A DNA stretch of 64,000 nucleotides from an uncultured Thermoplasmatales archaeon (GTDB taxonomy: Archaea > Thermoplasmatota > E2 > DHVEG-1): contig CAYOTP010000002.1 of assembly GCA_964406955.1 (NCBI GenBank), positions 369 to 64,368 of the forward strand, written 5' to 3'. Under the pieces are notes generated by a model. The model searched no databases. It saw only the letters and a list, made by a program, of their open reading frames with translations, and had not been told where the DNA came from. Shown piece by piece: positions 6,307 through 61,107 of this stretch (positions are counted from its first letter, which is position 1; each line of letters opens with the position of its first letter). Position numbers and translations under genes: made by a program.

Positions 6307-7695
6307 TTGAAAAAAGTGAAAATCATGAAAAAACAGATCATTGTTACATTCTTGATTCTCAGTTTATTATTAACAGCATTCAGTGGATGCACCGAACAAA
6401 AGAAGCAAGAAAAAGATAGTACACCACCTGAAGAAATATCGCTAGGCATAAAAGCACAATATTTTGTTGAAAATTTGTCCAATGAAAATTATGATTCGGT
6501 TTTTTATCACTTCACTGCTGAAATGAAATCCGTACTCCCCCTTACCGATTTACAATATGCATGGGAATCCCTCATAATGAGGTATGGAGATCTCGAAGAG
6601 ATCATAACAACGAGAAAAACGGTTGAACAAGGCTACGAAGTGGTCCTTGTGACATGCTCATTTTCAATTCTAGGTGTGTTGGATCTTCGATTTGTATTTG
6701 ATGAGCAGAGTCGAGTAGCCGGATTCCAATTTGTTCCAACTCAATCAACAGAGAAATATACAATCCCAGATTATGTTAACTTGTCAAAATTCGTAGAGGA
6801 AGATATCACCATTGGATCTCATCCATGGGTTCTTCCCGCAACAGTAAGCATCCCAACTGGAGATGAACCATTTCCTGCAGTTGTCCTTGTACATGGATCG
6901 GGACCAAATGATCGAAATGAAACAATTGGACCAAACCAACCATTCAAAGATATTGCCCAAGGTCTTGCATCACAGGGAATCCTTGTACTTAGATACGATA
7001 AAAGAACGATGATATATCCTGAAGAATGCGGATCTTTAACAAATTTTACTCTCAAAGATGAAGTAATCGATGATGCACTTTCAGCAATTACTTATCTACA
7101 AAACAACAAAAATGTAAATCAGTCCCATATCTATCTGTTGGGGCATAGTCTTGGAGCAATGATGGCACCAGAAATCGCTAGACAAAAAACCGTGGTTAAC
7201 GGAATGGTTCTCCTTGCTGCACCAGCAAGATCATTTGAAGATCTATATTTGGCACAATATACATATTTAGCAGAGCTAGACGGAACTATCGATGAAAATG
7301 AACAAAAAATGCTTAAAGACATTGCAACATCTGTTCAAAAAATTAAGGATCTAAACATAAGTACCGATGAATCCGTGTTTAATTTACCATTTAGCTACTG
7401 GGAATATCTATCTACCTATGATGCTATTGAAACCTCAAATAATCTAAGAATATCCATATTAATTCTCCAAGGAAAACGAGATTATCAAGTGACTTATAAA
7501 AATGATTTCCGTATTTGGCAAGAAACATTTCACAACTCAACAATGGTTACATTGAAAGATTACAATACATTAAATCATCTTTTTATCAGTGGAACAGGAA
7601 CCCCAACAAACACAGAATACCTTGATCCTGGAAACGTGGATGAACAAGCAATAATCGATATCGCATCGTGGATAAAAGAGCAAAAATTTAATTAA
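6307..7695 (+). CDS. secreted lipoprotein, alpha/beta hydrolase (dienelactone hydrolase/BAAT-like) with N-terminal accessory domain
   Basis: signal peptide plus lipobox LTAFSGC; HGSGPNDRNE and GHSLGA (GxSxG nucleophile elbow); start may be at the MKKQ 18 nt downstream. Confidence 0.75.
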   Translation: MKKVKIMKKQIIVTFLILSLLLTAFSGCTEQKKQEKDSTPPEEISLGIKAQYFVENLSNENYDSVFYHFTAEMKSVLPLTDLQYAWESLIMRYGDLEEIITTRKTVEQGYEVVLVTCSFSILGVLDLRFVFDEQSRVAGFQFVPTQSTEKYTIPDYVNLSKFVEEDITIGSHPWVLPATVSIPTGDEPFPAVVLVHGSGPNDRNETIGPNQPFKDIAQGLASQGILVLRYDKRTMIYPEECGSLTNFTLKDEVIDDALSAITYLQNNKNVNQSHIYLLGHSLGAMMAPEIARQKTVVNGMVLLAAPARSFEDLYLAQYTYLAELDGTIDENEQKMLKDIATSVQKIKDLNISTDESVFNLPFSYWEYLSTYDAIETSNNLRISILILQGKRDYQVTYKNDFRIWQETFHNSTMVTLKDYNTLNHLFISGTGTPTNTEYLDPGNVDEQAIIDIASWIKEQKFN

Positions 7696-7698
7696 TGG

Positions 7699-7926
7699 AT
7701 GAATAATTTTATGAAAAAAGTTACGATAACATTGGATGAAGAAGTTTGGAAATGGTGGAAGAAAAACCCCTGGATCAATCTTTCACAACTTGCAGAAAGA
7801 GAACTGAAACGTATCCGTGCGTTGGAAGAACGTGTCCTTGGGACCTGCCCTCACTGCGGAAGTGAGCGCCTCAAATTTAATGGAAAAACATATCACTGTG
7901 CAAAATGTGGTTTCATGTATAAATGA
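7699..7926 (+). CDS. small RHH-like plus zinc-ribbon protein
   Basis: 75 aa; N-terminal VTITLDEEVWKW resembles a ribbon-helix-helix strand; C-terminal CPHCGS...CAKCG zinc ribbon. Confidence 0.5.
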   Translation: MNNFMKKVTITLDEEVWKWWKKNPWINLSQLAERELKRIRALEERVLGTCPHCGSERLKFNGKTYHCAKCGFMYK

Positions 7927-15012: not shown

Positions 15013-16821
15013 TTATGTTTTTACTAACAAACCACCACGTTTGAATATCTCAAGTTGCGAAAGTGAAAATGGGTTGCCCTGAATAGTAATATCTTTTGTT
15101 TTATCAAAGATTTCTCCTGTTTCAAAATCAACAGATAGTTTATCTCCATTATCGATTTTCCGCGTTATTCCTTCGGCAACAATAATGGGAAGTGCATTAT
15201 TAATCGCGTTTCTTTCATAAATTGCCCCGAAGGATTCTGCAATAATAACGCTTACGCCTAATGATTTAAAACAATCAACTGCTTGTTGCCTGCTACTGCC
15301 ACAGCCAAAGTTTTTTCCAACAACGACGATATCTCCGGGTTGAACATGTTTTGCAAAATTCTTATGACCTTGTAAATTATCAAAAGTGTATTGACCCATT
15401 TCATCAATGTCTGTAATCGAAAGATAACGGTTATGAAAGATCATATCGGTATCAATATTGTCTTTTTTAATAACCCAACTTCGACCTTCCACCTGTAATT
15501 GAGATTGACTTTGTTTTGATTCAACCGATTTTGATTGAAACGTTGGAGAATCCTCAACTGGAACAAGAGTTGGTTGCTCTAGCAGTTCATCAGCGGTAGT
15601 GATGACCCCTGAAACAAGTGATGCTGCAACAGTTGAAGGACTTGCAAGATACAGGTTTCCTTTTCCTTGTTTTCCCGTGAAATTACGATTCCCACTTGAT
15701 ATCTCTATTTCTCCTTTTCCCGTTTGACCTATTTGACCAGCGGCACAACCTGCACAACCTGCCGATCCGATTAAAGCACCAGCTTTCTTAAAGATTTTAA
15801 CAAGATCCTCCTCTAAGCATTGTTTCCAAATGGCATCAGTTGCAGGAACAATTTTAAGGACTCTACCTGGGGCCACAAAACGATTATTTAATATCTTTGC
15901 AACGTCACGCATATCTTCCATACGTCCATTAGTACAGGACCCAATGAAGCCTGAATCAACTGAAATTCCTTTTACCTCTTTCACATCAACCACATCTTCA
16001 GGATGACCTGGTCGAGAAATTTGAGGTTTAATTTCCGAAATATCAATCGTAATAGTATCTTCATATGTTGCATCATCATCTGCATAGACGGGATGAACCT
16101 CAACTCCAAATGATTTCTTATAAAAATCAAGGACCTGCTGATTTGGAGGAAACAACATGATAATGCCACCTCCTTCCGTTGCCATTGATGCAATGGTGAT
16201 TCTTCCATCAAGGGACAACTGGTCAACATACGGGCCATAGAGTTCAGCAGCATATCCTAAAAGACCATTGGCACCAAGATGTTTAAGCATATGCAAAATA
16301 ACATCTTTTGGAGTTGCAGTTTTAGAAGGCATACCCTTTAAAACAAGTTTTATCGTGGGAGGGACCTTAAACCAGATCTTTCCATGAGCCCAAGCATGGG
16401 CAATGTCCTTATCTCCCATTCCTTGTCCAAAGGCACCAACCGCACCTATAATGTTAGCATGAGAATCTGTGGAAACAATGGTCCCACCAGGCATGATCAA
16501 TCCTTTATCAATGGCAATATGAGTGCCAATTCCTTTATCTATATCATAGACCTGAATGTGATTTCTACGGGCATATAACCGGCAGATATGTTGATTTGCA
16601 GCATATTTCTGATCGCAACCACCTGGGTTACAATCAAAGGTAAAAAATGTTTTGGTCGGATCATCAACAGTAAGCGTATTTTCCTCAAGATTCTTAACAA
16701 CATTTGCCCCACCAAAATCCCTAGCGATACGGGCATCTATTTCAATATCGATAATGTCTCCTACAGCTGCTTTCTGTTTGGAATGACTCTCAAATATTTT
16801 TTGAATGATTGTTTTACCCAT
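15013..16821 (-). CDS. aconitase-family dehydratase, fused large (LeuC-like) and small (LeuD-like) subunits
   Basis: 602 aa; N-terminal about 420 aa LeuC-like with Cys ligand region GSCTNGR / CAGCAAGQ; C-terminal about 165 aa LeuD-like (GKNFGCGSSRQQA). Confidence 0.8.
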   Translation of the reverse strand: MGKTIIQKIFESHSKQKAAVGDIIDIEIDARIARDFGGANVVKNLEENTLTVDDPTKTFFTFDCNPGGCDQKYAANQHICRLYARRNHIQVYDIDKGIGTHIAIDKGLIMPGGTIVSTDSHANIIGAVGAFGQGMGDKDIAHAWAHGKIWFKVPPTIKLVLKGMPSKTATPKDVILHMLKHLGANGLLGYAAELYGPYVDQLSLDGRITIASMATEGGGIIMLFPPNQQVLDFYKKSFGVEVHPVYADDDATYEDTITIDISEIKPQISRPGHPEDVVDVKEVKGISVDSGFIGSCTNGRMEDMRDVAKILNNRFVAPGRVLKIVPATDAIWKQCLEEDLVKIFKKAGALIGSAGCAGCAAGQIGQTGKGEIEISSGNRNFTGKQGKGNLYLASPSTVAASLVSGVITTADELLEQPTLVPVEDSPTFQSKSVESKQSQSQLQVEGRSWVIKKDNIDTDMIFHNRYLSITDIDEMGQYTFDNLQGHKNFAKHVQPGDIVVVGKNFGCGSSRQQAVDCFKSLGVSVIIAESFGAIYERNAINNALPIIVAEGITRKIDNGDKLSVDFETGEIFDKTKDITIQGNPFSLSQLEIFKRGGLLVKT

Positions 16822-17609
16822 CAGTCTTCACCTTCCCCCACTTTCAAATCTCTTTCTTTGGGTCCATCATATTCACAGGTTACAGAATACATTTTCCGCA
16901 TGGGTTTAAAACGAGTTTGCTCCTCATAGACCTGGGCGGTTAATCCCGCCACTCGTCCAAGAAGGAAAAATGCTTTCCCAAGCCGCCAATCAAGCTGCAT
17001 ATCTGAAGTTACCGCCGCTATTGCACCATCCACATTTATCGGTAATTTCCTTTTAAGAGCTTGTTCCAACTCTTTTTCAATTGCTTTTGCTAATCTAATG
17101 TGATCTCCCGTTATTCCGAGTTTATCTGCAAGAGAAAACAAACGAATCGTTCGAGGATCTTGTGTATGGACCCGATGACCAAAACCAAGGATCCTTTGAT
17201 GATTCTTTCTAGATTCATCGACTACCATCGTTGCTATATCCTCAATAGAATGGTTTTCCGCTTTCATCCGTTGAATGGTTTCTTGCATAAAACATGCACT
17301 TTTTTCGATTGCGCCGCCGTGTGCATCACCAATACTTAATATTCCTGCGGCAACTGCACTTGGCAAGGGCACACCACCTGAGGCTACTACTCTAGCAGCC
17401 ATTGGCGAAGGTGAGGTAATGCCATGATCGATACAGGAAGTTAGAATTGCATCCATCATTTTTCCATGGGCTTTACTTGGTAACTCTCCTTTTAACAATA
17501 AATAGACAACATGTGGAAATGAAACATTTCCGATAAGATCCTCCTGCCGATATCCTCTGGTGATCAAATGATTTGGCTCAACTTTGGTAATCGAACTTTT
17601 CCACTCCAT
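16821..17609 (-). CDS. short citrate-synthase-family protein, citryl-CoA lyase-like
   Basis: 262 aa, C-terminal citrate synthase core only; signature GFGHRVHTQDPR (CS motif G[FY]GHxV...DPR). Confidence 0.7.
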   Translation of the reverse strand: MEWKSSITKVEPNHLITRGYRQEDLIGNVSFPHVVYLLLKGELPSKAHGKMMDAILTSCIDHGITSPSPMAARVVASGGVPLPSAVAAGILSIGDAHGGAIEKSACFMQETIQRMKAENHSIEDIATMVVDESRKNHQRILGFGHRVHTQDPRTIRLFSLADKLGITGDHIRLAKAIEKELEQALKRKLPINVDGAIAAVTSDMQLDWRLGKAFFLLGRVAGLTAQVYEEQTRFKPMRKMYSVTCEYDGPKERDLKVGEGED

Positions 17610-17615
17610 AATTCA

Positions 17616-19106
17616 TCATCCCTCTACTTTATATATCACATCAAGTAGTTCACCATTTCGCCACTTTGTAATAGCTATGATTTCATCACCAAAATCAACC
17701 ATGGGAGGACCGCCTGTTTCATCATGAGCCATTTGTTTTAATGATTCAATGGACACAATATTGATGTTGCTTTCATCTAGTTTTTCAATTAGATCCTTTC
17801 GTTTTGGATTAATAGCGATACCTTGATCGGTAACAATGGCATCAATGACATCACCTGGGGTCGTAATTGTTGTCACCGAATCACGGATGACAGGAATCTT
17901 TTTTCGATATACTGGGACTGTTATCATTGTTAGATTTGCACCAGCTGCTGAATCCTGATGACCACCTATTCCATGAAGCAACCGGCCATCGCTATGGGTA
18001 TTTACATTCACATTAAAATTGGTGTCCACTTCCGTTGCTCCAAGGATGGTTGCATGAAGACCATCAAGAAACCGGCCCTTAGATGAAGGATCTGCATAAT
18101 GACCAATATCAGTAATCAATCTTCTTGTTTCGGCGATATATTTTATGCTTTCCACATCAAAACATTGCAGTCCATATGCATTTCGAACAAATCCTTTTCG
18201 ATGCATATCTGCAATAAATTTAGTGAAACCCCCAGTTTCACAGGCAGCAACCACATTGTTCTCCTCTAAAATCTCATCAAGATATTGTAATGCTGCTAGG
18301 GAAATACCGCCTGCTCCAGCCTGAAAGATCAATCCATCTTTAATCAGATCAAGTGCATTCATTAAATCCATACATTGCTGGGCAATATGAAGTTTTTGAG
18401 GATCATTAGTTACTTTTAGTGAACCTGAGACGATATCTTGGGGATTGCCAATTTCATCCATTTCAACGACAAAATCAACATATCCTTCATTGATTTCTTG
18501 ATAGCCACAAGGTCGTTCTACCAAGTTATCTGTAACCACTATCACATGGTCAGCATTCATCGCATCAACTTGGGAATAACATATAGGGCCAAACGCACTT
18601 TTTCCAATTAAACCGGTACAATTTCCCCTGTTATCCGCTGCAGATGCAGCAATTATTGCAACATCAACATGAAGTTCATCATTTTTGACTGCCGCCCAGC
18701 GTCCACCATGGGATCGTAATACCACCGGATGAGGTAATGGGTTTTTTGAAACATAATCACCTACAATACCATTGATACTTCCTTCTATACGATCTACCGT
18801 ACCTTGTTTGATATGGTCAATGACGGGTTTATGAATGGGAAACAATGCCGTTTGTGCTAAACGAAGATTTTTCACTCCCAATTCACTAATAACATCTAAC
18901 GTATGATTGATGACATAATCGCCATTTCTTAGTTGATGATGAAACGAGATGGTTTGTCCGTCTTTCAACCCACTTTGTTGTAGTGCTTTTTTCAAACTGG
19001 TTACCTTTGAATTGCAATTGTTTTTATGTGCCTTTTTAAAAGGTTTATACGTTTCTCCTGCAATTGTTTCTGGTATAAGCTTTCCAGCAGAGTTTCTCAT
19101 GCTCAT
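17616..19106 (-). CDS. citF: citrate lyase alpha subunit / citrate CoA-transferase (CitF family)
   Basis: 496 aa; collinear with E. coli CitF from SGLKDGQTISFHH to the C-terminal TEVDTNFNVNV...GGHQD...ITVP...IVTDQGIA block. Confidence 0.8.
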   Translation of the reverse strand: MSMRNSAGKLIPETIAGETYKPFKKAHKNNCNSKVTSLKKALQQSGLKDGQTISFHHQLRNGDYVINHTLDVISELGVKNLRLAQTALFPIHKPVIDHIKQGTVDRIEGSINGIVGDYVSKNPLPHPVVLRSHGGRWAAVKNDELHVDVAIIAASAADNRGNCTGLIGKSAFGPICYSQVDAMNADHVIVVTDNLVERPCGYQEINEGYVDFVVEMDEIGNPQDIVSGSLKVTNDPQKLHIAQQCMDLMNALDLIKDGLIFQAGAGGISLAALQYLDEILEENNVVAACETGGFTKFIADMHRKGFVRNAYGLQCFDVESIKYIAETRRLITDIGHYADPSSKGRFLDGLHATILGATEVDTNFNVNVNTHSDGRLLHGIGGHQDSAAGANLTMITVPVYRKKIPVIRDSVTTITTPGDVIDAIVTDQGIAINPKRKDLIEKLDESNINIVSIESLKQMAHDETGGPPMVDFGDEIIAITKWRNGELLDVIYKVEG

Positions 19107-53062: not shown

Positions 53063-53076
53063 ATCTTTTTATAATA
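53063..53076 (+). promoter_or_regulatory. TATA-box-like element upstream of DUF134 operon
   Basis: tcTTTTTATAATAc about 40 nt upstream of the ATG at 53111, in a 230-bp AT-rich intergenic region. Confidence 0.3.
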
Positions 53077-53110
53077 CTTCTCATTAGTATACTAATTGTG
53101 AAAAATAGCT

Positions 53111-53440
53111 ATGCCTGGACGTGGACATGGCCGACGAGGACGAAATCGCGGAAAACGATGGATAGACCAACTCCCAAAGTATCATACACCTAATGAAGGT
53201 CAAGTATTACAGCCAAACTCCGTATGCCTTACTCCCGCTGAAATAGAACTACTTCGACTCATTGATCTAGAGAACCTGACTCAACAAGAAGCAGCAGCCC
53301 GTATGGGAGTTTCCAGAAAAACATTATGGAATGACTTACAGAAAGTACGAAGAAAGGTGGCTCACGCTCTTTTGCATGGCCATCCTATCTGCGTTGCAGG
53401 TAGAGACTATAAAATAAGAAACCAATTTGGAGGTGAATAG
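53111..53440 (+). CDS. DUF134/UPF0251 family DNA-binding protein
   Basis: 109 aa; Arg-rich N-terminus then sigma-70 region-4-like HTH (LTQQEAAARMGVSRKTLWNDL) characteristic of DUF134. Confidence 0.75.
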   Translation: MPGRGHGRRGRNRGKRWIDQLPKYHTPNEGQVLQPNSVCLTPAEIELLRLIDLENLTQQEAAARMGVSRKTLWNDLQKVRRKVAHALLHGHPICVAGRDYKIRNQFGGE

Positions 53441-53444
53441 AAAT

Positions 53445-53813
53445 ATGCCAAGTGGAGATAGAACCGGCCCAGAAGGATTTGGTCCTCGAAGTGGAAGAGG
53501 ATTAGGTTACTGCAGCGGATATGATAGCCCCGGATACACCAAAGGAGTTCCTCGTGGTGGCCAAGGCTATGGTCGAGGATTTGGCCGTGGTTTCGGTCGA
53601 GGTTATGGCTGGGGCCGCAGAAGGGAATACTACCCACACCCAGATAATCGATATTATCCAAATAGATATCCTCTAGAGCCGTATCAAGCAATGGACAAAG
53701 ATGAAGAAAAACACTATCTGGAAGAATTAGTTCAAAGCCTAGAAAACGAACTAAGAAGCATCAAAAACAGATTGCAAGAGCTCGGAAAGAAAAACAATCT
53801 AGAAACCCCATAA
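53445..53813 (+). CDS. DUF5320-like Gly/Arg-rich protein with C-terminal coiled coil
   Basis: start moved to MPSGDRTGPEG (ATG 53445, GGAGGTGA upstream); repeated GRGFGRGFGRGYG; C-terminal heptad-like EELVQSLENELRSIKNRLQEL. Confidence 0.6.
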   Translation: MPSGDRTGPEGFGPRSGRGLGYCSGYDSPGYTKGVPRGGQGYGRGFGRGFGRGYGWGRRREYYPHPDNRYYPNRYPLEPYQAMDKDEEKHYLEELVQSLENELRSIKNRLQELGKKNNLETP

Positions 53814-53884
53814 AAACCAATTATTGGGGTTTCTTAACCAATTCTTAATTAGGATTAAAATGATTAAGAAAAGAAGGTACAGCC

Positions 53885-54718
53885 ATGCAACAAAATCAAG
53901 TGGAAGAACGGGAAAAACAAGAAGAAGGCATTAAAAAAAATCTTAACAAAATCAAACAAGTCATCGTGGTGTTAAGTGGAAAAGGCGGAGTTGGAAAAAG
54001 TACGGTTTCAACAAACTTAGCATTAACCTTGGCACAACAGGGAAATAAAGTTGGTTTACTCGATAGTGATATACATGGGCCAACGATTCCAACTATGCTT
54101 GGACTTTCAGGCAGGCGAATAACCCAATCAGCCGATGGATTAAAACCTATTAAAGCAACAGAAAATCTACAAGTATTATCTATGGGATTTCTAATTGAAA
54201 ACCAGGATGATGCCATTATTTGGCGAGGTCCAATGAAGATGGGAGCCATCAAACAATTAATCGGAGATTTTAATTGGGGTGCCTTAGATTATTTAATTAT
54301 TGATCTACCACCAGGTACTGGCGATGAACCACTAAGCATTGCTCAGATTATACCAAAGATTACTGGAGCAATCATTGTAACCACACCTCAAGATGTGGCA
54401 TTAGTGAGCGTAAGAAAGTCAATTACTTTTGTAAACAAGATTAAAATACCCATAATCGGAATTATTGAGAACATGAGCGGGTTTACTTGCCCACATTGTA
54501 GAAAAAAAATCGACATCTTTAAAAGTGGTGGTGGTAAGAAGGCAGCAGATGAATTTAACCTTTCATTTTTGGGCTCCATTCCACTGGACCCAACAATTGT
54601 TGAAACAGGGGATACGGGATCAATAAATCTGTTAAAAGATACGATTTTAGCGACATCGTTTGTAAGCATTGCAGCAAATGTAAAAAATAGTATAAAGAAA
54701 AAGGAGGAAAAAAAGTAA
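53885..54718 (+). CDS. Mrp/NBP35 (ApbC) family Fe-S cluster carrier ATPase
   Basis: deviant Walker [10 protein letters not shown]; CPHC (CxxC) cluster-bridging motif. Confidence 0.85.
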
Positions 54719-54942
54719 TGCCCCAAAGAGACGGAACAGGCCCTATAGGAAAAGGCAGGGGATATAATCAGGATCGAGGGGGTGGATATGGGAAAGGCCT
54801 TGGAAGGAGTGGTGGAACAGCGCAAGGTCCTGGTGGACGCTGCCGATGCCCAAATTGTGGCCATACTGAACCACATGAACTTGGAACGCCTTGTTATCAT
54901 AGGAGATGTCCAAAATGTGGCTCACCGATGACCCGTGCTTAA
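54718..54942 (+). CDS. DUF5320-like N-terminus fused to C-terminal double zinc ribbon
   Basis: 74 aa; [15 protein letters not shown] parallels MPSGDRTGPEG of ORF 53445; C-terminus CRCPNCG...CPKCG. Confidence 0.6.
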   Translation: MPQRDGTGPIGKGRGYNQDRGGGYGKGLGRSGGTAQGPGGRCRCPNCGHTEPHELGTPCYHRRCPKCGSPMTRA

Positions 54943-55006
54943 ATAACATCTGTTAATGACAACGATTATTAAAGAGAGATGAATTCTCGCTCAGCATAGT
55001 GATAAA

Positions 55007-55405
55007 ATGAAAGTAATTGTAACTGCAACAAAAGATACTCTTGACGGCCCAGTTGATCCTCGTTTTGGACGATGTCAATATTTTATAACAGTGGACACTG
55101 AGAATCTTGAGTATACTGTAATGGAAAACTCTCAAAAAAATGCCATGGGTGGGGCAGGTGTGCAAGCGGCCCAAACCGTAGCCAATGCACAAGTTGACGC
55201 AGTGATCACCGGTTCAGTTGGACCAAACGCATTTCAAACACTGAATGTCGCCGGAGTTAAGATATTTACCGGTGCAAGCGGAACCGTGAAAGAGGCCATT
55301 ATGGCATTGAACCAAGGCTCATTGCAAGAAACAAATGATTCAACAGTTGGATCACATCACGGAATGAGTAAACAAGATCATGAAACGAAGGGGGATAAGC
55401 AATGA
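55007..55405 (+). CDS. NifX/NafY-like dinitrogenase FeMo-cofactor-binding family protein
   Basis: 132 aa; PF02579-like pattern: N-terminal strand then RFGRC, ...G.G...A......V..VI.G..G..A...L...GI. Confidence 0.8.
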   Translation: MKVIVTATKDTLDGPVDPRFGRCQYFITVDTENLEYTVMENSQKNAMGGAGVQAAQTVANAQVDAVITGSVGPNAFQTLNVAGVKIFTGASGTVKEAIMALNQGSLQETNDSTVGSHHGMSKQDHETKGDKQ

Positions 55406-55782
55406 AAGTTGGAATTCCTTCAATGGGTGAAAAAGGATTAGATGAACAAGTTGGTCAGCATTTTGGTCGAGTTACTCACTACACTATAGTTGATTTAGAT
55501 AAAGATACGGTTACTGTTATTACTAATACTAGCCATCACATGGGTGGAACCGTTGAACCACCTGAACTGTTAAAAAACGAAGGGGTATGTGTGATGCTGT
55601 GTTCCGGTCTTGGCCGACGAGCAATCAATCTTTTCGAACAAATGGGCATTGATGTTTACATTGGTGCATCAGGAAAAGTTCGCGATGCAATCACTGCATT
55701 TGAACAAGGTAATTTAAAGCAAGCAACCATGTCCGATGGTTGCCAGGAACACACCTTTGGCGAACATCGCCATCATCACTAA
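55402..55782 (+). CDS. NifX/NafY-like cofactor-binding family protein, second copy
   Basis: 126 aa; HFGRV... and LCSGLGRRAINLFEQMGIDVY blocks; His-rich tail HRHHH. Confidence 0.8.
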   Translation: MKVGIPSMGEKGLDEQVGQHFGRVTHYTIVDLDKDTVTVITNTSHHMGGTVEPPELLKNEGVCVMLCSGLGRRAINLFEQMGIDVYIGASGKVRDAITAFEQGNLKQATMSDGCQEHTFGEHRHHH

Positions 55783-55837
55783 TACCACTATTTTTCCTTT
55801 TAAATGTAATATTAATTAATCGGAGGCATAAGTAAAT

Positions 55838-56701
55838 ATGCAGACCCATCTTGATTGTATCCCTTGTTTTTTACATCAATCACTTGAAGCCGCACGCATG
55901 GCAACCAGTGATGAAAAAAAACATGAAGAAGTAATGAAAAAAGTCATGGATCATTTACAAACCATTGATTTTACGCTTTCACCACCTGAAATCTCACAAC
56001 ATGTTCACCATATTATTCGTACGGTTACAGGCAATACCGACCCATATATAAAAGTGAAAGAAGAAGCAAATCAACAAGCAAAAAATCAATATCCTACATT
56101 AAAAAAAATGGTTGAACAAAGCGATGATTCATTGTTGATGGCTGCAAAACTTGCAATTATTGGAAATGTGATTGATTTTGGAACCATGAATCGAATGAAT
56201 GTAAAAGAAATGATTGAAAACATTGCACATAAACCATTTGATGATGCTGGTTATGAACTATTTAAACAACGAGTGAAAGACGCAAAAACAATTGTGTATT
56301 TAGCTGATAACACCGGTGAAATCTTCTTTGATCGGCTTCTTCTTGAACAATTACACAATGAAAACAGGCAGATTACCTATGTGGTAAAACAGTATCCAAT
56401 CATTAATGATGCGACAAAAGATGATGCATTATATGCGGGTATAGATGCATATGCAGATATCATTGCAGGTGATAAAGACGCTACATATTCAGCTCCAGGC
56501 TTAGTACTCTCAAATATGTCTACTGAGTTGAAAGATTTAATTAATAGTGCTGATTTGGCGATATCTAAGGGACAAGGGAACTATGAATCATTAAGCGAAT
56601 TTGACCGTGAAATCTTTTTTTTATTAATGGTAAAGTGCCCGCTTGTTGCATCTAACATTGGGATTAATGTTGGAACCATGGTGTTAAAGGTGAAAAAATG
56701 A
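55838..56701 (+). CDS. DUF89 (ARMT1-like) family protein
   Basis: 287 aa; N-terminal CIPCF motif and overall DUF89 pattern. Confidence 0.7.
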   Translation: MQTHLDCIPCFLHQSLEAARMATSDEKKHEEVMKKVMDHLQTIDFTLSPPEISQHVHHIIRTVTGNTDPYIKVKEEANQQAKNQYPTLKKMVEQSDDSLLMAAKLAIIGNVIDFGTMNRMNVKEMIENIAHKPFDDAGYELFKQRVKDAKTIVYLADNTGEIFFDRLLLEQLHNENRQITYVVKQYPIINDATKDDALYAGIDAYADIIAGDKDATYSAPGLVLSNMSTELKDLINSADLAISKGQGNYESLSEFDREIFFLLMVKCPLVASNIGINVGTMVLKVKK

Positions 56702-57534
56702 AAATTGCTATTGCCAGTGGTAAGGGAGGTACAGGTAAAACTACCGTTGCGGTTAATCTTGCGTTAATTGCTCAGCATGCACAATTATTAGATGCTGATG
56801 TTGAAGAACCTAATGCAAACTTGTTTTTACATGCAAAATTTTCAGAAGAAAAAAAAATAACGGTTTCTGTTCCTGAAATCAATGAGAATCGATGTATATA
56901 TTGTGGAAAATGCAGCAAGTTTTGTGCATATAATGCGCTAGCAGTGGTTCCCCATAAAGTTTTAGTGTTTGCAGATTTGTGTCATTCCTGCAAAGGATGT
57001 GAACTGGTATGCCCCAAGAATGCTGTTGGTTGGCGGAATCGAGAAGTGGGCTTGCTTCGCAGAGGAAAAGAAAATGGAGTTTCTATTGTTGAAGGAGATT
57101 TAAATTTAGGGGAGAGCCAAGCTATTCCCGTGATCAAAGCATTGAAACAAGAAATTGATCTAAATAAAACAGTCATTATTGATGCGCCACCGGGAACGTC
57201 TTGTCCGGTGATGGAAGCAATTGAGGATAGTGACTATGTTGTATTAGTAACTGAGCCTACACCGTTTGGACTTCATGATTTGAAACTTGCTGTTGAAGTC
57301 GTTCGACGGATGAAACTTCTGTTTTGCGTAGTGATTAATCGTGATGGTGTCGGAGATAAACGAGTTGAGTTGTATTGTCGACAAGAAGAAATCCCAGTTT
57401 TGCTAAAGATTCCACATGATACTCGAATAGCTTCATTGTATTCAGATGGAGAGCCTTTCGTTAATCACATGCCAGAGTTAAAACAGGATTTTCAAGAATT
57501 ATTAAATCGAATTAAGAAGGAGATATCCTCATGA
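56698..57534 (+). CDS. MinD/ParA-family P-loop ATPase with inserted 2x[4Fe-4S] ferredoxin domain
   Basis: deviant Walker A SGKGGTGKTT; CIYCGKCSKFC and CHSCKGCELVCP cluster motifs. Confidence 0.8.
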   Translation: MKIAIASGKGGTGKTTVAVNLALIAQHAQLLDADVEEPNANLFLHAKFSEEKKITVSVPEINENRCIYCGKCSKFCAYNALAVVPHKVLVFADLCHSCKGCELVCPKNAVGWRNREVGLLRRGKENGVSIVEGDLNLGESQAIPVIKALKQEIDLNKTVIIDAPPGTSCPVMEAIEDSDYVVLVTEPTPFGLHDLKLAVEVVRRMKLLFCVVINRDGVGDKRVELYCRQEEIPVLLKIPHDTRIASLYSDGEPFVNHMPELKQDFQELLNRIKKEISS

Positions 57535-58415
57535 AACAAGTTAGCATCATTAGCGGTAAAGGAGGGACCGGTAAAACAACGATTACCGCGGCTTTTGCCG
57601 CGTTAGCAAAAAATGCGGTGCTTGCTGATTGTGATGTTGATGCAGCGGATTTACATTTGATTTTAAAACCAGTTGTGAAGAAAACAGTTGGATTTCATGG
57701 TCTCCCCGTGGCGAAAATTGATGAGGAAAAATGTATCAAATGCATGGACTGCGTTAATCACTGTCAGTTTGAGGCCATCACTGATGAAATCACCGTGAAA
57801 TATGAAGCATGTGAAGGCTGTGGTGTGTGTGAACTGGTGTGCCCGGTTGATGCAGCATCAATGATTCAACGTGATTCTGGATTGTTGTATGAATCAGAGA
57901 CTCGCTTTGGTCCTATGGTTCATGCCCGGTTGAATACTGCGGAAGAATCATCTGGGAAACTTGTTACTGAAGTGCGTCATCATGCTGAAGCAGTCGCTGA
58001 ACAGAAAGAGAAAGAAGTAGTGTTAATTGATGGTCCACCAGGCATTGGTTGCCCAGTGATAAGTGCTATTACGGGTGTTGATTTAGTCGTTGTGGTCACA
58101 GAGCCAACGTTTTCAGGCATTCATGATTTAAAGCGAGTTATCGATGTTGCAAAACATTTTGAGATTACGCAAGCAGTGATTATCAATAAAACGGATATCA
58201 ATCCAAAAAAAACAAGTGAAATCAAATCGTTTTGTAGAAAACATCAGATTCCCTTATTGGGTTGTATTCCATATGATACGTTGGTAACAAAAGCAATGAT
58301 TGAGGAAAAAGCAATTCCAGAGTATGATAAAGGTGATGTCACCTCATCAATTAAACAAGCATGGGAATCATTATCCAACTTGTTAGATCTTTCATCAGCA
58401 AACCATAAATCATAA
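57531..58415 (+). CDS. MinD/ParA-family P-loop ATPase with inserted 2x[4Fe-4S] ferredoxin domain, second copy
   Basis: SGKGGTGKTT; CIKCMDCVNHC and CEGCGVCELVCP. Confidence 0.8.
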   Translation: MKQVSIISGKGGTGKTTITAAFAALAKNAVLADCDVDAADLHLILKPVVKKTVGFHGLPVAKIDEEKCIKCMDCVNHCQFEAITDEITVKYEACEGCGVCELVCPVDAASMIQRDSGLLYESETRFGPMVHARLNTAEESSGKLVTEVRHHAEAVAEQKEKEVVLIDGPPGIGCPVISAITGVDLVVVVTEPTFSGIHDLKRVIDVAKHFEITQAVIINKTDINPKKTSEIKSFCRKHQIPLLGCIPYDTLVTKAMIEEKAIPEYDKGDVTSSIKQAWESLSNLLDLSSANHKS

Positions 58416-58450
58416 AAACAAAGGTAGTATCCTTTTTGTTGAGTTGAATC

Positions 58451-58795
58451 ATGATGAAACATGTTCATTATACTGATGTTAACGCTGAAGATGTTGATGT
58501 TGAAGGTGCAAAAGATGCAAGGATTCGTTGGTTAATCGCAAAAAGAGATGGTGCCAAGAATTTCACCATGCGATTGTTTGATGTTGAACCAGGTGGATGT
58601 ACTCCATTGCATCAGCATGATTGGGAACATGAAGTATTTATTGTGTCTGGTTCTGGAGAACTTCGAGATAAGGATGATAAGAACGTTTTTGGAAAAGGAG
58701 ATGTCATCTTTGTTCCACCAATGGAATGGCATCAATTTGTGAACACCGGTAATGAATTATTGCAGTTTATTTGTGTAATCCCGTATAAAGATTAA
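58451..58795 (+). CDS. cupin-domain protein
   Basis: 114 aa; cupin motifs G(x)5HxH (PLHQHDWEHE) and second His motif. Confidence 0.7.
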   Translation: MMKHVHYTDVNAEDVDVEGAKDARIRWLIAKRDGAKNFTMRLFDVEPGGCTPLHQHDWEHEVFIVSGSGELRDKDDKNVFGKGDVIFVPPMEWHQFVNTGNELLQFICVIPYKD

Positions 58796-58955
58796 GGTAT
58801 GTAATCTCAAATTTTTTTGTTTGCTTACGTGTCATCCAGGATAATGGTTGTGTAATCATTATACACAATCGTTATATAGAATAAACCCTATAGACAATAG
58901 ATAATACAGACGACATTTACTAAAAATATCTACAATCAGTAAGGCATATGAAAAA

Positions 58956-59360
58956 ATGATAAAACTCTTTGATAAACTTACCAAAAAAAGCGAATCAGAC
59001 CGTTCACCATTAAAAAAATCAGATTGGCCAAAACATGTGGAAGAACTCACCAAAGAAACCTTTGATGATTTCATTGATAAATACCCACTTACCATCATTG
59101 ACTTTTGGGCACCCTGGTGCAAACCATGTAAAACCATGCTTCCTCGATTACGTCGATTAGAGCGAATATATCAAGGAAAAGCAGCCTTTGCTAGAGTAAA
59201 CACCCAAAAAGAAACAGAAATCCCAAAAAAATACAATATTCGCGGCATCCCACATTTTGGCATCTTTCGTTATGGAGACAAAATAGCAAGTGCTACTGGG
59301 GCACAATCAGTTGGTGAACTCAAAAATATCATCAACAAATATCTTGATAAATATTCATAA
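58956..59360 (+). CDS. trx: thioredoxin
   Basis: WAPWCKPCK active site. Confidence 0.85.
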   Translation: MIKLFDKLTKKSESDRSPLKKSDWPKHVEELTKETFDDFIDKYPLTIIDFWAPWCKPCKTMLPRLRRLERIYQGKAAFARVNTQKETEIPKKYNIRGIPHFGIFRYGDKIASATGAQSVGELKNIINKYLDKYS

Positions 59361-59422: not shown

Positions 59423-59647
59423 ATGAGGCGAAAAACGCTTTCCATTCAATGTAACCAATGCGGAAAAGAAATCTTTTCATACGTAAAAATTGGTAACGGG
59501 CGAGTTTGGCATTGCTGGAAGAAAAGGATCCTTAAGGATAACGGTATCAAAGATGGAAAATACGTTCGCTGCAATTGCGGCAACCTCATTGGAAAAGACA
59601 AACGCATTTGGATTGAATTAAAACAACATCATATCAACATCGAATAA
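59423..59647 (+). CDS. small zinc-ribbon protein
   Basis: 74 aa; CNQCGK...CNCGN. Confidence 0.45.
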   Translation: MRRKTLSIQCNQCGKEIFSYVKIGNGRVWHCWKKRILKDNGIKDGKYVRCNCGNLIGKDKRIWIELKQHHINIE

Positions 59648-59667: not shown

Positions 59668-60453
59668 TTGTGGAGCAGGATAAGAAAAATGGATAAAAAA
59701 CAACAACTTGAACAGTTGAACAAACAGATTCTATCTTGTCAGCAATGCAGATTGGCAGATACCCGAAAACATGCACTACCCGGCGAGGGGGATCCAAATG
59801 CCCGATTATTTCTAATTGCACAAGCACCAGGTAAAGTTGAAGATATGAAAGGCAATATGTTTCTTGGGCCTTCCGGAAGAGTACTTGATAACCTCCTTAA
59901 CACGATAGGTGTAACTCGTGATGAATTATTCATGACCAATCTCATCAAATGTCACTTGCCAAAAAACCGGAAACCAAAGCAATCTGAAGTCCAGGCATGC
60001 CATCACTATTTAGACAAAGAAATCGAAATCATAACTCCCTCCTTTCTAATTCCTATGGGCCATTATGCAACTCGATATCTATTACAAAAATATGATCAAA
60101 AAATTCCTTCAAGACATGAATTCTATGAATTATATGGATCACTTCTTTACGTCAAAAAACAAAAAATATATCCCATTCAACACCCTGCAGCATCACTTCA
60201 TGATGATTCACTACAACCAATTCTAGAAAAAAATTATCATAAACTATCCGTGTTTTCCAACCAATGCAAATGGGCATCAGTCTGCCCTATGAAATATTAT
60301 CATGAAAAAGGACTCTTAGATACAAAATGGAGAGAACTATATTGTTTTGGTGACTGGGAATCCTGTATTCGGTTTCAAATGGAGAAAGAAGGCAAATACC
60401 ATGAAGATTGGATGCTTCCAAATGGGCAGCTTGATGATAAACTAAGGGGATGA
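59668..60453 (+). CDS. uracil-DNA glycosylase, family 4
   Basis: CQQCRL, GEGDPNARLFLIAQAPG and HPAA motifs; extra about 60-aa Cys/Trp-rich C-terminal tail. Confidence 0.8.
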   Translation: MWSRIRKMDKKQQLEQLNKQILSCQQCRLADTRKHALPGEGDPNARLFLIAQAPGKVEDMKGNMFLGPSGRVLDNLLNTIGVTRDELFMTNLIKCHLPKNRKPKQSEVQACHHYLDKEIEIITPSFLIPMGHYATRYLLQKYDQKIPSRHEFYELYGSLLYVKKQKIYPIQHPAASLHDDSLQPILEKNYHKLSVFSNQCKWASVCPMKYYHEKGLLDTKWRELYCFGDWESCIRFQMEKEGKYHEDWMLPNGQLDDKLRG

Positions 60454-60459
60454 TAAATA

Positions 60460-61107
60460 TTGAAATTAACCATCGTATATGATAACGAAAATTACAAGAG
60501 CAAACCTGGAACAGCAGACCATGGTTTTTCATGTTATATCGAAACCAGTAGCGAAACAATCCTATTTGATACTGGAACAGATGGAAAACTATTACTTCAA
60601 AACATGAAACTTCTAGGCAAGGATCCACATAAGATATCTAAAATTGTAATTTCCCATGAACATTATGACCATAATGGAGGCCTCCCAACATTGATTTCAC
60701 ATCTAATTAATCCAACCATTTACCGATTAGGCCCTAAACAATCATTTAATGAAGTTGAAGAAATCATCGTAACCGATCCTATCAATATCACCAAACAGAT
60801 CAGTTCCACGGGCCGCCTAACTGGCCAACCTGTTGATGAGCAATCGCTTTTGTTAGAATCAACTAAAGGTGTTGTCGTTCTTACTGGATGCTCCCATCCT
60901 GGATTGGGGTTGATTCTTCATGCTGCTGAAAAACAGGGTAGAATCCTTGGTTTAATCGGTGGATTTCATAATTTTGCAGATTTTGAGATAATTGAATCAT
61001 TGCAATTTATCTATCCCTGTCATTGTACAGCATTCAAAAAAGAAATAAAGAACAAATACCCCACTAAAACTAAAAATTGTGGTTTGGGGCTAACAATTAA
61101 TCTCTGA
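60460..61107 (+). CDS. metallo-beta-lactamase-fold hydrolase
   Basis: HxHxDH motif ISHEHYDHNGG. Confidence 0.7.
   Translation: MKLTIVYDNENYKSKPGTADHGFSCYIETSSETILFDTGTDGKLLLQNMKLLGKDPHKISKIVISHEHYDHNGGLPTLISHLINPTIYRLGPKQSFNEVEEIIVTDPINITKQISSTGRLTGQPVDEQSLLLESTKGVVVLTGCSHPGLGLILHAAEKQGRILGLIGGFHNFADFEIIESLQFIYPCHCTAFKKEIKNKYPTKTKNCGLGLTINL

Follow-up and report, generated by a model that had tools for sequence, protein, structure and literature searches.

Within a 64,000-nucleotide stretch of contig CAYOTP010000002.1 (assembly GCA_964406955.1; hereafter the window) from an uncultured Thermoplasmatales archaeon, a ten-gene operon at 53111-58795 is very probably an archaeal cluster of the ORP (Orange Protein) type, and so a new instance of an already known system. 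Its genes encode, in order, a DUF134 protein (g1), a DUF5320 protein (g2), an Mrp ATPase (g3), a short cysteine-rich protein (g4, gene 4), two NifX-like proteins (g5 and g6), a DUF89 protein (g7), two MinD-type ATPases with ferredoxin inserts (g8 and g9, hereafter MinD-ferredoxins A and B) and a cupin (g10). An initial annotation, made from the sequence without database searches, had called this an uncharacterised system; clusters of the same kind have already been studied in Desulfovibrio vulgaris and D. gigas (PMC6345978, PMC8359166). We read the operon as the fully split, archaeal form of the ORP system and put at roughly 60% the probability that its products make up a multi-protein machine that holds and moves labile metal-sulfide clusters, most probably iron-sulfur (Fe-S) clusters. 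The placement of the operon in metal-sulfur cluster biology by the initial annotation was reasonable. The ORP system is among the most widespread conserved but functionally unassigned gene clusters of strict anaerobes and stands at the storage and trafficking of Fe-S and metal-sulfide clusters without oxygen. The locus adds no new kind of system, and offers a compact single-operon version with one gene per domain, convenient for reconstitution.

The Desulfovibrio ORP complex comprises Orp3 and Orp4, both MinD-like with a pair of [4Fe-4S] motifs, the NifX-like proteins Orp5 and Orp8, and Orp9 (MrpORP), in which Mrp is fused to a C-terminal NifX-like (Di-Nase) domain (PMC6345978, PMC8359166). 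Orp8 is the homologue of the D. gigas orange protein, which holds a non-covalent molybdenum-copper-sulfide (Mo-Cu-S) cluster, [S2MoS2CuS2MoS2] (PMC6345978). The genes form two divergent sigma54 operons controlled by OrpR, a redox-sensing activator, together with IHF (PMC6345978, PMC8359166), and have been described as anaerobe-specific and possibly archaeal in origin (PMC3897727, PMC8359166). Starting from the sequence of the D. gigas protein (2WFB), we reached an orthologue with 74% identity in Desulfovibrio sp. X2, at a locus (L092) that reads two PAS-sigma54 activators, a 168-aa (amino acid) protein, a 112-aa protein, ORP, MinD-ferredoxin, MinD-ferredoxin, a NifX-like protein and a metallo-beta-lactamase (MBL)-rhodanese protein. 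Four core genes of the archaeal operon correspond one-to-one with this locus, with the ATPases in the same order (A then B). The best match of g5 there is ORP itself (41.5% identity), that of g6 the second NifX-like protein (34%, E 3e-19), that of g8 the first MinD-ferredoxin (36.7%) and that of g9 the second (42.6%). Together with scores on the MrpORP model and the presence of OrpR-like genes in related loci, these ordered one-to-one matches underlie the assignment to the ORP type. The operon thus has the paired MinD-ferredoxin ATPases, an Orp8-type NifX-like protein (g5) and a second NifX-like protein (g6); it does not have the Mrp-NifX fusion, and scans of the ten genes and of the annotated flanks of relatives found no enhancer-binding-protein gene beside it.

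Profile searches against Pfam and NCBIfam agree with the initial family calls for DUF134, DUF5320, Mrp, both NifX-like proteins, DUF89, both MinD-ferredoxins and the cupin. The Mrp protein g3 carries a deviant Walker A (GKGGVGKS) and a CXXC motif (CPHC), and its structural relatives include an archaeal Mrp (2PH1) and Cfd1 (6G2G), at E 1e-66 to 1e-68. It scores 368 bits on the NCBIfam MrpORP model NF041136 (cutoff 450), aligning with model positions 1-257 of 365, and 256 bits on the ApbC model. Unfused Mrps of other ORP-type loci show the same pattern with 350-373 bits, and true MrpORP proteins with 510-557 bits, above the cutoff of 450, adjoin the MinD-ferredoxin pair in six loci of the census described below. 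Fused and unfused forms are likewise intermixed in the published MrpORP tree (PMC6345978). In MrpORP, the CXXC motif binds a [4Fe-4S] cluster that was transferred in vitro to aconitase and to an Orp3/Orp4/Orp8 preparation, and the NifX-like domain holds a [3Fe-4S] cluster (PMC6345978).

Structures matching g5 are MTH1175 (3e-19), TM1290 (3e-18) and the D. gigas orange protein (2WFB, 1.2e-17 over 103 residues), and those matching g6 are PH0822 and TM1816. An HFG motif and a C-terminal Cys/His-rich tail, with C114 conserved at 96%, mark g6, which aligns with positions 273-364 of the MrpORP model (E 4e-12); g5 too matches the C-terminal part of that model in the NCBIfam scan. The tails of g5 and g6 are short and acidic or His-rich, so that neither protein has in its own chain the long cationic Gly/aromatic tail of IssA, the NifX-like thioferrate-storing protein of Pyrococcus furiosus.

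The paired ATPases g8 and g9 are 33% identical to each other, and each has the Walker A sequence GKGGTGKT and two CxxCxxCxxxC motifs. All 80 B paralogues and 70 of the 75 A paralogues of the census have a cysteine seven residues past the Walker-B Asp (D-x-P-P-G-x-x-C-P; C174 in g9), the five exceptions being fragments; we take this Switch-II spacing to be that of Asp125 and the cluster ligand Cys132 in NifH. The AlphaFold2 model of g9 (mean predicted local distance difference test, pLDDT, 90.7) lies nearest to the solved folds of MinD, FleN, NifH and BchL, and no structure with a ferredoxin insert was among its fold matches. On the archaeal MinD model TIGR01969 (cutoff 201.75), g8 and g9 score only 64 and 67 bits, and they fall far below the NifH models of Pfam and NCBIfam. 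The same scans gave no match to a CooC, HypB or UreG-type model, and a metallochaperone identity of that type was rejected.

An earlier proposal for the Desulfovibrio ORP complex is that MinD-like ATPases position the septum or a cargo as part of a cell-division or spatial-positioning system. In its favour, MinD proteins head the fold matches of g9. In D. vulgaris, OrpR inactivation causes morphology defects, MrpORP localises to a cell pole, and Orp3 and Orp4 have been reported with a MinD-like C-terminal amphipathic helix (PMC8359166, PMC6345978). We nevertheless regard a division role as quite improbable here. Both proteins fall well short of the MinD cutoff, and both carry eight-Cys ferredoxin inserts and a Switch-II cysteine that MinD does not have. 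Their partners are all metal-cluster proteins (Mrp, NifX-like, NifU_N), and no minC, minE or FtsZ gene is among the recurrent neighbours of the 80 census loci. The morphology phenotype could itself be an indirect result of an Fe-S defect.

For a census of related loci, one genome per GTDB species was scanned with a MinD-ferredoxin alignment, which gave 80 loci (L012-L091). The archaeal loci belong to Thermoplasmatota, Methanosarcinales, Methanocellaceae, Bathyarchaeia, Thorarchaeota and Altiarchaeota, and the bacterial loci to about 15 phyla, including Desulfobacterota, Dehalococcoidia, Planctomycetota, Omnitrophota, Clostridia, Atribacteria and Aminicenantes. Partners were counted with profiles of the window proteins, iterated once on the loci, as matches within 6 kb of the g9 orthologue; nearly all lie on its strand, and every gene-4-family match was inspected by eye for the Cys/His motif. 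MinD-ferredoxin A is present at 95% of the loci, NifX-a at 80%, NifX-b at 70%, DUF5320 and Mrp at 49% each, the gene-4 family at 39%, DUF134 at 25%, DUF89 at 19%, thioredoxin at 6% and the cupin at 2%. MinD-ferredoxins A and B are an obligate pair, and DUF5320, gene 4 and DUF89 are regular companions of ORP-type clusters across phyla. Neither of the outcomes that the initial annotation had set against itself came about: the ORFs do not fall into unrelated families, and the neighbourhood is conserved, the identical operon recurring in close relatives and its core in the 80 species-level loci of many phyla. The view in that annotation of Mrp, DUF89 and the zinc-ribbon DUF5320 variant as additions of a larger version did not hold. 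Mrp belongs to the ORP core, and the census frequencies of the three (49%, 19% and 39%) make them common members. A literature search on co-occurrence of DUF134, DUF5320 and DUF89 found nothing relevant.

The census, together with the domain fusions described below, excludes a chance juxtaposition of the core genes. A narrower version of the same idea is that the association is one of mere neighbourhood for some members, with DUF89, the cupin and perhaps DUF134 as unrelated passengers, which we think has little chance of being right. The cupin is indeed confined to one clade, occurring beside the cluster only in Thermoplasmatota relatives and at one Thorarchaeota locus, and it is the sole clade-specific addition among the operon genes. 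DUF89 and DUF134 are found at only 19% and 25% of loci, and characterised DUF89 enzymes are metabolite-repair phosphatases with no link to metal clusters (PMC9062747). However, g7 overlaps g8, g8 overlaps g9 and a gap of only 35 nucleotides (nt) precedes the cupin, and gene order is kept in a Thermoplasmatota metagenome-assembled genome (MAG; L012) whose g9 orthologue is only 62% identical, where Mrp, gene 4, NifX, NifX, DUF89, MinD-ferredoxin, MinD-ferredoxin, cupin and thioredoxin follow one another. A DUF89 frequency of 19% within 6 kb is, by rough estimate, about 50-fold above the expectation for one copy per genome, and DUF89 genes adjoin the pair in Maridesulfovibrio, Omnitrophota, Planctomycetota and Methanocellaceae. 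Translational coupling and recurrence in distant phyla therefore make DUF89 an unlikely passenger.

One of these loci, in a Maridesulfovibrio species (L060, 7745-11516), has a divergent DUF89 gene followed by DUF5320, MinD-ferredoxin A, MinD-ferredoxin B, CGGC and Zn_ribbon_8 genes; lacking any NifX-like gene, it is a reduced form. DUF89 is therefore linked to the ATPase pair even where NifX-like partners are missing. Given this gene content, the locus was rejected as a canonical orp locus.

Fusions in other genomes join the same families in single chains. MinD-ferredoxins A and B, in that order, form one chain of about 610 aa in three bacterial genomes (L061 1323-3155, L063 9053-10885 and L086 9044-10879), and MrpORP, the fusion of Mrp with NifX-b, is found at six census loci. 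NifX-a is fused to a Gly/Arg tail of the (G-M-G-R)n type and a coiled coil at 16 of 65 loci. Chains of NifX-a, tail and NifX-b occur at three loci, of NifX-b and NifX-a at two, and of NifX-a, tail and a 2x[4Fe-4S] ferredoxin domain at one. Since the component families are fused elsewhere, this argues for the Orp-type proteins here forming one physical complex. The fusions of NifX-a with tail and coiled coil also identify DUF5320 as a putative free-standing form of the NifX-a tail.

The g2 protein begins with an MP-x-x-D-x-TGP motif, continues with a disordered middle rich in Gly, Arg and aromatic residues and ends in a coiled coil; it scores 101.9 bits on the DUF5320 model, above the gathering score and over positions 1-99 of 99, and its one invariant cysteine, C23, is 100% conserved in the family alignment. 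Within residues 1-78, Gly accounts for 21 positions, Arg/Lys for 13, aromatic residues for 14 and Pro for 9, and the isoelectric point (pI) is 9.9. The 70-residue tail of IssA has 15 Gly, 7 cationic, 14 aromatic and 11 Pro residues and a pI of 10.7 (PMC5524996). Fe and S bind to the NifX-like domain of IssA, and the cationic Gly/aromatic tail of the protein has been proposed to wrap anionic thioferrate (PMC5524996). In the Desulfovibrio sp. X2 locus, the region before ORP (7059-7900) encodes the 168-aa protein, which gives a weak NifX-like match and ends in a tail rich in Cys, Gly and Arg, and the 112-aa Gly/Gln/Arg-rich protein; the two genes occupy the orp7 position and resemble DUF5320 and gene 4 in composition.

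The small protein g4 combines a DUF5320-type N-terminus with a different C-terminal module. In the initial annotation it was a DUF5320-like protein ending in a double zinc ribbon. The first part stands only for the first 40 or so residues: Pfam DUF5320 matches g4 at model positions 1-39 alone (E 0.34, below cutoff), a weak match to the profile recurs in 21 of 25 family members (best 2.8e-5), and BLASTP of g2 against g4 gave no significant match, their common N-terminal motif being visible by eye and in the weak profile matches. The remainder is a module invariant in the alignment, C-x-C-P-x-x-C-x5-H-x5-C-x4-C-P-x-C (Cys6His), and a fold search with its model returned only generic rubredoxin and Zn-knuckle matches (E > 0.7), which does not bear out a double zinc ribbon. 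In the AlphaFold2 model, residues 1-37 are disordered and residues 40-74 fold as a small knuckle (pLDDT 81-90). The family, marked by an MP-x-x-D-G-T-G-P motif, a Gly/Arg linker and the Cys6His module, has no Pfam or NCBIfam model and comprises 1094 clusters at 50% identity (E <= 1e-3) in a representative library. Long members (P0134, 988 aa; P0137, 1430 aa) match the query in four to five separate stretches and apparently carry tandem copies of the Cys6His module. A homologue that is 56% identical to g4 lies outside any ORP-type cluster, on a bacterial MAG contig (L007, 388-2557), directly upstream of an Oxidored_FMN/Pyr_redox_2 gene (enoate or 2,4-dienoyl-CoA reductase-like), with a NifU_N gene 7 kb off.

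NifX and NafY carry precursors of the iron-molybdenum cofactor, and Fe-S ATPases of the SIMIBI class such as NifH act in cofactor maturation. By analogy with NifH, NifEN and NifX, the operon could be a dedicated line for the assembly and insertion of a Mo, W or Cu-sulfide heterometal cofactor into a client enzyme, as the initial annotation had suggested. The fold of g9 matches NifH and BchL as well as MinD, and the closest characterised relative of g5, the orange protein, carries [S2MoS2CuS2MoS2] (PMC6345978). The genes around ORP-type clusters speak against this. De novo clustering of the other open reading frames (ORFs) within 7 kb of the MinD-ferredoxin pair, most of them on the same strand, recovered FmdB-type Zn_ribbon_8 proteins at 31 of the 80 loci, MBL-fold hydrolases at 24, NifU_N/IscU-like scaffolds at 23, radical S-adenosylmethionine (SAM) proteins at 20, TrmO_N + CGGC fusions at 17, class-I SAM methyltransferases at 14, OrpR-like PAS-sigma54 activators at 13 (bacteria only), and Fur and DnaJ-domain proteins with a Gly/Arg-rich tail at 9 each. 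Mo/W and nif genes were not among these recurrent neighbours. Nor was a nif, Mo/W-transport, molybdopterin or candidate client gene found among the annotated genes of the window or in the annotated 10-kb flanks of relatives.

A search for nif genes among the ten large window ORFs scanned, most smaller ORFs being unannotated, and in the annotated 10-kb flanks of relatives likewise came back empty. The initial remark that no nitrogenase genes lie nearby therefore agrees with the annotated parts of the window, and a nitrogenase link was rejected, there being no nifHDK, nifEN or nifB among annotated genes. The cluster also occurs in very many anaerobic phyla whatever their metabolism, and such breadth is easier to reconcile with a housekeeping role than with one special client. 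A heterometal line is one possible function, which nothing favours over Fe-S storage and trafficking, and we consider it doubtful. The recurrence of NifU_N (23 loci), radical SAM (20) and Fur (9) supports a link to Fe-S metabolism.

Returning to the machine that we favour, ATP-driven holding and transfer of Fe-S or metal-sulfide clusters is its most likely function. A four-part mechanism can be proposed, to which we give somewhat less than even odds. The Mrp dimer would assemble a bridging [4Fe-4S] cluster on its CXXC motifs and load the MinD-ferredoxin inserts, as the in vitro result with its Desulfovibrio homologues suggests. MinD-ferredoxins A and B would act as an ATP-dependent heterodimer, given their invariable pairing and their single-chain fusions in other genomes, and ATP hydrolysis could be tied to the transfer of electrons or clusters by their ferredoxin clusters and Switch-II cysteine, much as in NifH-type proteins. 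The two NifX-like proteins would be the cluster-holding modules. DUF5320 and gene 4 would be their detachable polycationic tails or adaptors, a role suggested by the fusions and by compositional likeness to the IssA tail. The DUF134 protein would control transcription from a TATA promoter with a conserved inverted repeat, and DUF89, a phosphatase, and the cupin would be accessory proteins. Cluster holding has been shown for members of the NifX-like family: the orange protein (Mo-Cu-S), the C-terminal domain of MrpORP ([3Fe-4S]) and IssA (thioferrate) (PMC6345978, PMC5524996). In Methanococcus voltae, growth on pyrite raises the levels of two NifX-like proteins whose genes lie four locus tags apart (range Mvol_0689 to Mvol_0693), and the cells give a thioferrate-like electron paramagnetic resonance signal (PMC8516115, PMC9431491). 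The cellular output could be Fe-S storage and mobilisation, supply to particular clients, or thiomolybdate or tungstate handling.

A bolder version of this scheme casts ORP as a split IssA, an Fe-S storage-and-mobilisation machine of anaerobes driven by the NifH-like MinD-ferredoxin pair; we think it unlikely. The NifX-like proteins would nucleate anionic thioferrate-like iron-sulfide and the DUF5320 and gene-4 tails would wrap it, DUF5320 oligomerising through its coiled coil and gene 4 capping through its Cys6His module. The MinD-ferredoxin heterodimer would serve as an ATP-driven reductase, with a further cluster bridged by the Switch-II cysteines, and would pass Fe-S units on to Mrp, which would deliver them to apo-proteins. 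If true, this would give a function at once to several of the commonest uncharacterised families of anaerobes: DUF5320, the gene-4 family (>1000 clusters), the MinD-ferredoxins and orphan NifX-like proteins. Hypotheses about ORP are sharpened by the findings that DUF5320 and gene 4 are regular members, that IssA-like fusions occur, that the Switch-II cysteine is invariant and that NifU, Fur, radical SAM and MBL genes accompany the cluster.

Several points weigh against reading the operon as a cluster-holding and -moving ORP machine. To our knowledge, the ORP complex as a whole has no known biochemical function. The NifH equivalence of the Switch-II cysteine is presumed from motif spacing. The protein g3 has no fused C-terminal NifX-like domain and, for that reason, fails the MrpORP equivalog cutoff. 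The Gly/Arg-rich proteins of the Desulfovibrio sp. X2 locus gave no match to the DUF5320 or gene-4 profiles, and what DUF5320 and gene 4 have in common with the IssA tail is composition, not homology. The census loci were picked by similarity to g9 and so sample g9 orthologues, not the whole MinD-ferredoxin family. The scheme does not account for DUF89 or the cupin. The only reported Desulfovibrio phenotype is a morphology or cell-division defect on OrpR inactivation (PMC8359166), and in its native state the orange protein holds Mo-Cu-S instead of Fe-S (PMC6345978).

The physical layout of the operon is tight, as first described: ten co-directional, closely packed ORFs were read from the window at 53111-58795 on the plus strand. 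Base 54718 is common to the g3 stop and the g4 start, 4-nt overlaps occur at g5/g6, g7/g8 and g8/g9, and gaps of 35-72 nt separate the remaining genes, with 35 nt before the cupin. Of the overlaps or close boundaries initially listed, those at 54718, 55402/55405, 56698/56701 and 57531/57534 hold, and the one at g1/g2 (53427/53440) is an artefact of taking the longest ORF. That ORF of g2 begins at TTG 53427, and the DUF5320 model begins at its residue 7; relatives are called from the MP-x-x-D start, and GGAGGTG (53429-53435) precedes ATG 53445, which is the probable start of g2 and leaves about 4 nt between g1 and g2. The overlaps at g7/g8 and g8/g9 and the short gap before the cupin indicate co-transcription, and we infer a single transcription unit from 53066 to 58822.

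Upstream of g1 is a 229-nt AT-rich spacer, common to a divergent exonuclease III gene. It contains the TATA-like and inverted-repeat block listed in Table 1, which in an alignment is kept upstream of the DUF134 gene in four relatives (L004, L001, L010 and L009) and is weaker in the most distant one. The repeat may serve as the operator of the DUF134 protein, which probably regulates transcription of the operon, or of another regulator. Archaea use oligo-T runs as terminators, and the run beyond the cupin is therefore a likely archaeal transcription terminator and end of the operon. The identical ten-gene operon with identical flanks is found on several related metagenomic and MAG contigs, and close homologues are annotated as Thermoplasmatota archaea. 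A profile scan found no further paralogues of the cluster families elsewhere in the window.

Table 1. Positions in the window of the operon genes, the putative control elements and a neighbouring gene.
Feature	Position	Strand	Basis or remark
Candidate archaeal promoter, TATA-like TTTTTATAATA	53066-53076	+	read from sequence
Imperfect inverted repeat TTCTCA-N13-TGTGAA	53078-53083 + 53097-53102	+	9 nt before g1 ATG; candidate operator 53078-53102
g1, DUF134 helix-turn-helix (HTH) protein, Arg/Gly-rich N-terminus	53111-53440	+	Pfam PF02001 E 9.9e-21; sigma-70 region 4-like HTH matches
g2, DUF5320	53445-53813	+	Pfam PF17253 E 4.8e-29
g3, Mrp/NBP35-type Fe-S carrier ATPase	53885-54718	+	Pfam PF10609 (NUBPL-type ParA) E 2e-100
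g4, 74-aa Cys-rich protein	54718-54942	+	DUF5320-type N-terminal motif, disordered Gly/Arg linker, Cys6His module
g5, single-domain NifX-like, orange-protein/IssA-type (Orp8 class)	55007-55405	+	Pfam PF02579 (Nitro_FeMo-Co) E 3e-24
g6, second NifX-like (Orp5/MrpORP C-terminal-domain class)	55402-55782	+	Pfam PF02579 E 8e-20
g7, predicted DUF89/ARMT1 subfamily I metal-dependent phosphatase	55838-56701	+	Pfam PF01937 E 6e-66
g8, MinD-type P-loop ATPase, 2x[4Fe-4S] ferredoxin insert, paralogue A (Orp3/Orp4 class)	56698-57534	+	CbiA/ParA and motif scans
g9, MinD-type P-loop ATPase, 2x[4Fe-4S] ferredoxin insert, paralogue B	57531-58415	+	CbiA/ParA and motif scans
g10, small metal-binding cupin, last operon gene	58451-58795	+	Pfam Cupin_2 E 1.6e-16
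Oligo-T run T7-G-T3, likely terminator	58812-58822	+	17 nt past cupin stop; read from sequence
MBL-fold protein	60460-61107	+	1.7 kb downstream; 42% identity, E 1e-55, to recurrent MBL family

For g7, the PF01937 match is full-length (223 bits, profile positions 1-310 of 311), and its structural matches are Archaeoglobus fulgidus AF1104 (2FFJ, 2.8e-42) and Pyrococcus horikoshii PH1575 (2G8L, 3.9e-38). The metal motif D-N-x-G-E is intact (D157, N158, G160 and E161 conserved), the K-G-x-x-N-Y motif is kept, and the cysteines of an N-terminal C-x-x-C, C7 and C10, are 95% conserved. We assign g7 by these features to the DUF89 subfamily I of metal-dependent phosphatases; its scores of 179 and 175 bits miss the two NCBIfam equivalog cutoffs of 500 and 440. 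The cupin g10 matches RemF (1e-22) and the Mn cupin TM1459 (1.5e-19).

Downstream of the cupin, the plus strand encodes a thioredoxin (58956-59360), in the same position in all close relatives, a 74-aa Cys-rich protein (59423-59647) and a family-4-like uracil-DNA glycosylase with a Cys-rich C-terminal extension (59668-60453). The MBL gene of Table 1 is a possible looser member of the ORP neighbourhood. With the thioredoxin following the cupin in close relatives and an MBL of the recurrent family beyond it, the functional neighbourhood may extend past 58795. Elsewhere in the window, a group of minus-strand genes (15013-19106) encodes an aconitase, a protein with a citrate-synthase C-terminal domain and a CitF-like alpha subunit of citrate lyase, and may be a citrate-cleavage or reverse tricarboxylic acid cycle module. 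Aconitase is an Fe-S enzyme, but at 34 kb from the operon no link is implied. An archaeal-type threonyl-tRNA synthetase editing domain is also encoded in the window.

The individual proteins of the operon can be set beside known systems. Like ApbC, Mrp, Nbp35 and Cfd1 carriers, g3 has a deviant Walker A, a CXXC motif and a PF10609 match; unlike ApbC-type carriers, it sits in a dedicated ORP-type operon and scores higher on the MrpORP model than on the ApbC model. With NifX, NafY and the C-terminal domain of NifB, the NifX-like proteins share the PF02579 fold family. As in NifH, g8 and g9 are SIMIBI-class ATPases with Fe-S clusters and a cysteine at what is presumably the same distance, seven residues, past the Walker-B/Switch-II Asp, whereas the ferredoxin inserts set them apart from it. 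With the MinD septum-site ATPases they have only the fold class in common, the ferredoxin insert and Switch-II cysteine being absent from MinD. The DUF89 protein g7 matches the subfamily I proteins PH1575 and AF1104 over its full length with their motifs kept, and differs from characterised DUF89 proteins in being embedded in a metal-cluster operon and in scoring below the equivalog cutoffs.

Two whole systems can be compared as well. With IssA of P. furiosus and its "IssX" relatives, which have Gly-rich tails, the operon shares the NifX-like domain (IPR003731), the best structural match of g5, MTH1175, having been placed in the IssA clade (PMC5524996), and a cationic, disordered Gly/Arg/aromatic segment (g2 residues 1-78), a tail of this kind being fused to NifX-a at 16 related loci. 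In contrast to IssA, the tail-like segments here are separate genes, g2 and g4, with extra modules (MP-x-x-D-x-TGP and a coiled coil or Cys6His knuckle). IssA has not been described as a partner of MinD-ferredoxin ATPases. With the Desulfovibrio ORP cluster it shares the adjacent MinD-ferredoxin paralogues, two NifX-like proteins, a CXXC-bearing Mrp closest to the MrpORP model and a small Gly/Arg-rich protein upstream. It differs from that cluster in its archaeal host, in being a single operon headed by DUF134 with no sigma54, OrpR or IHF control, in its unfused Mrp, and in the inclusion of DUF5320, the gene-4 Cys6His protein, DUF89 and a cupin.

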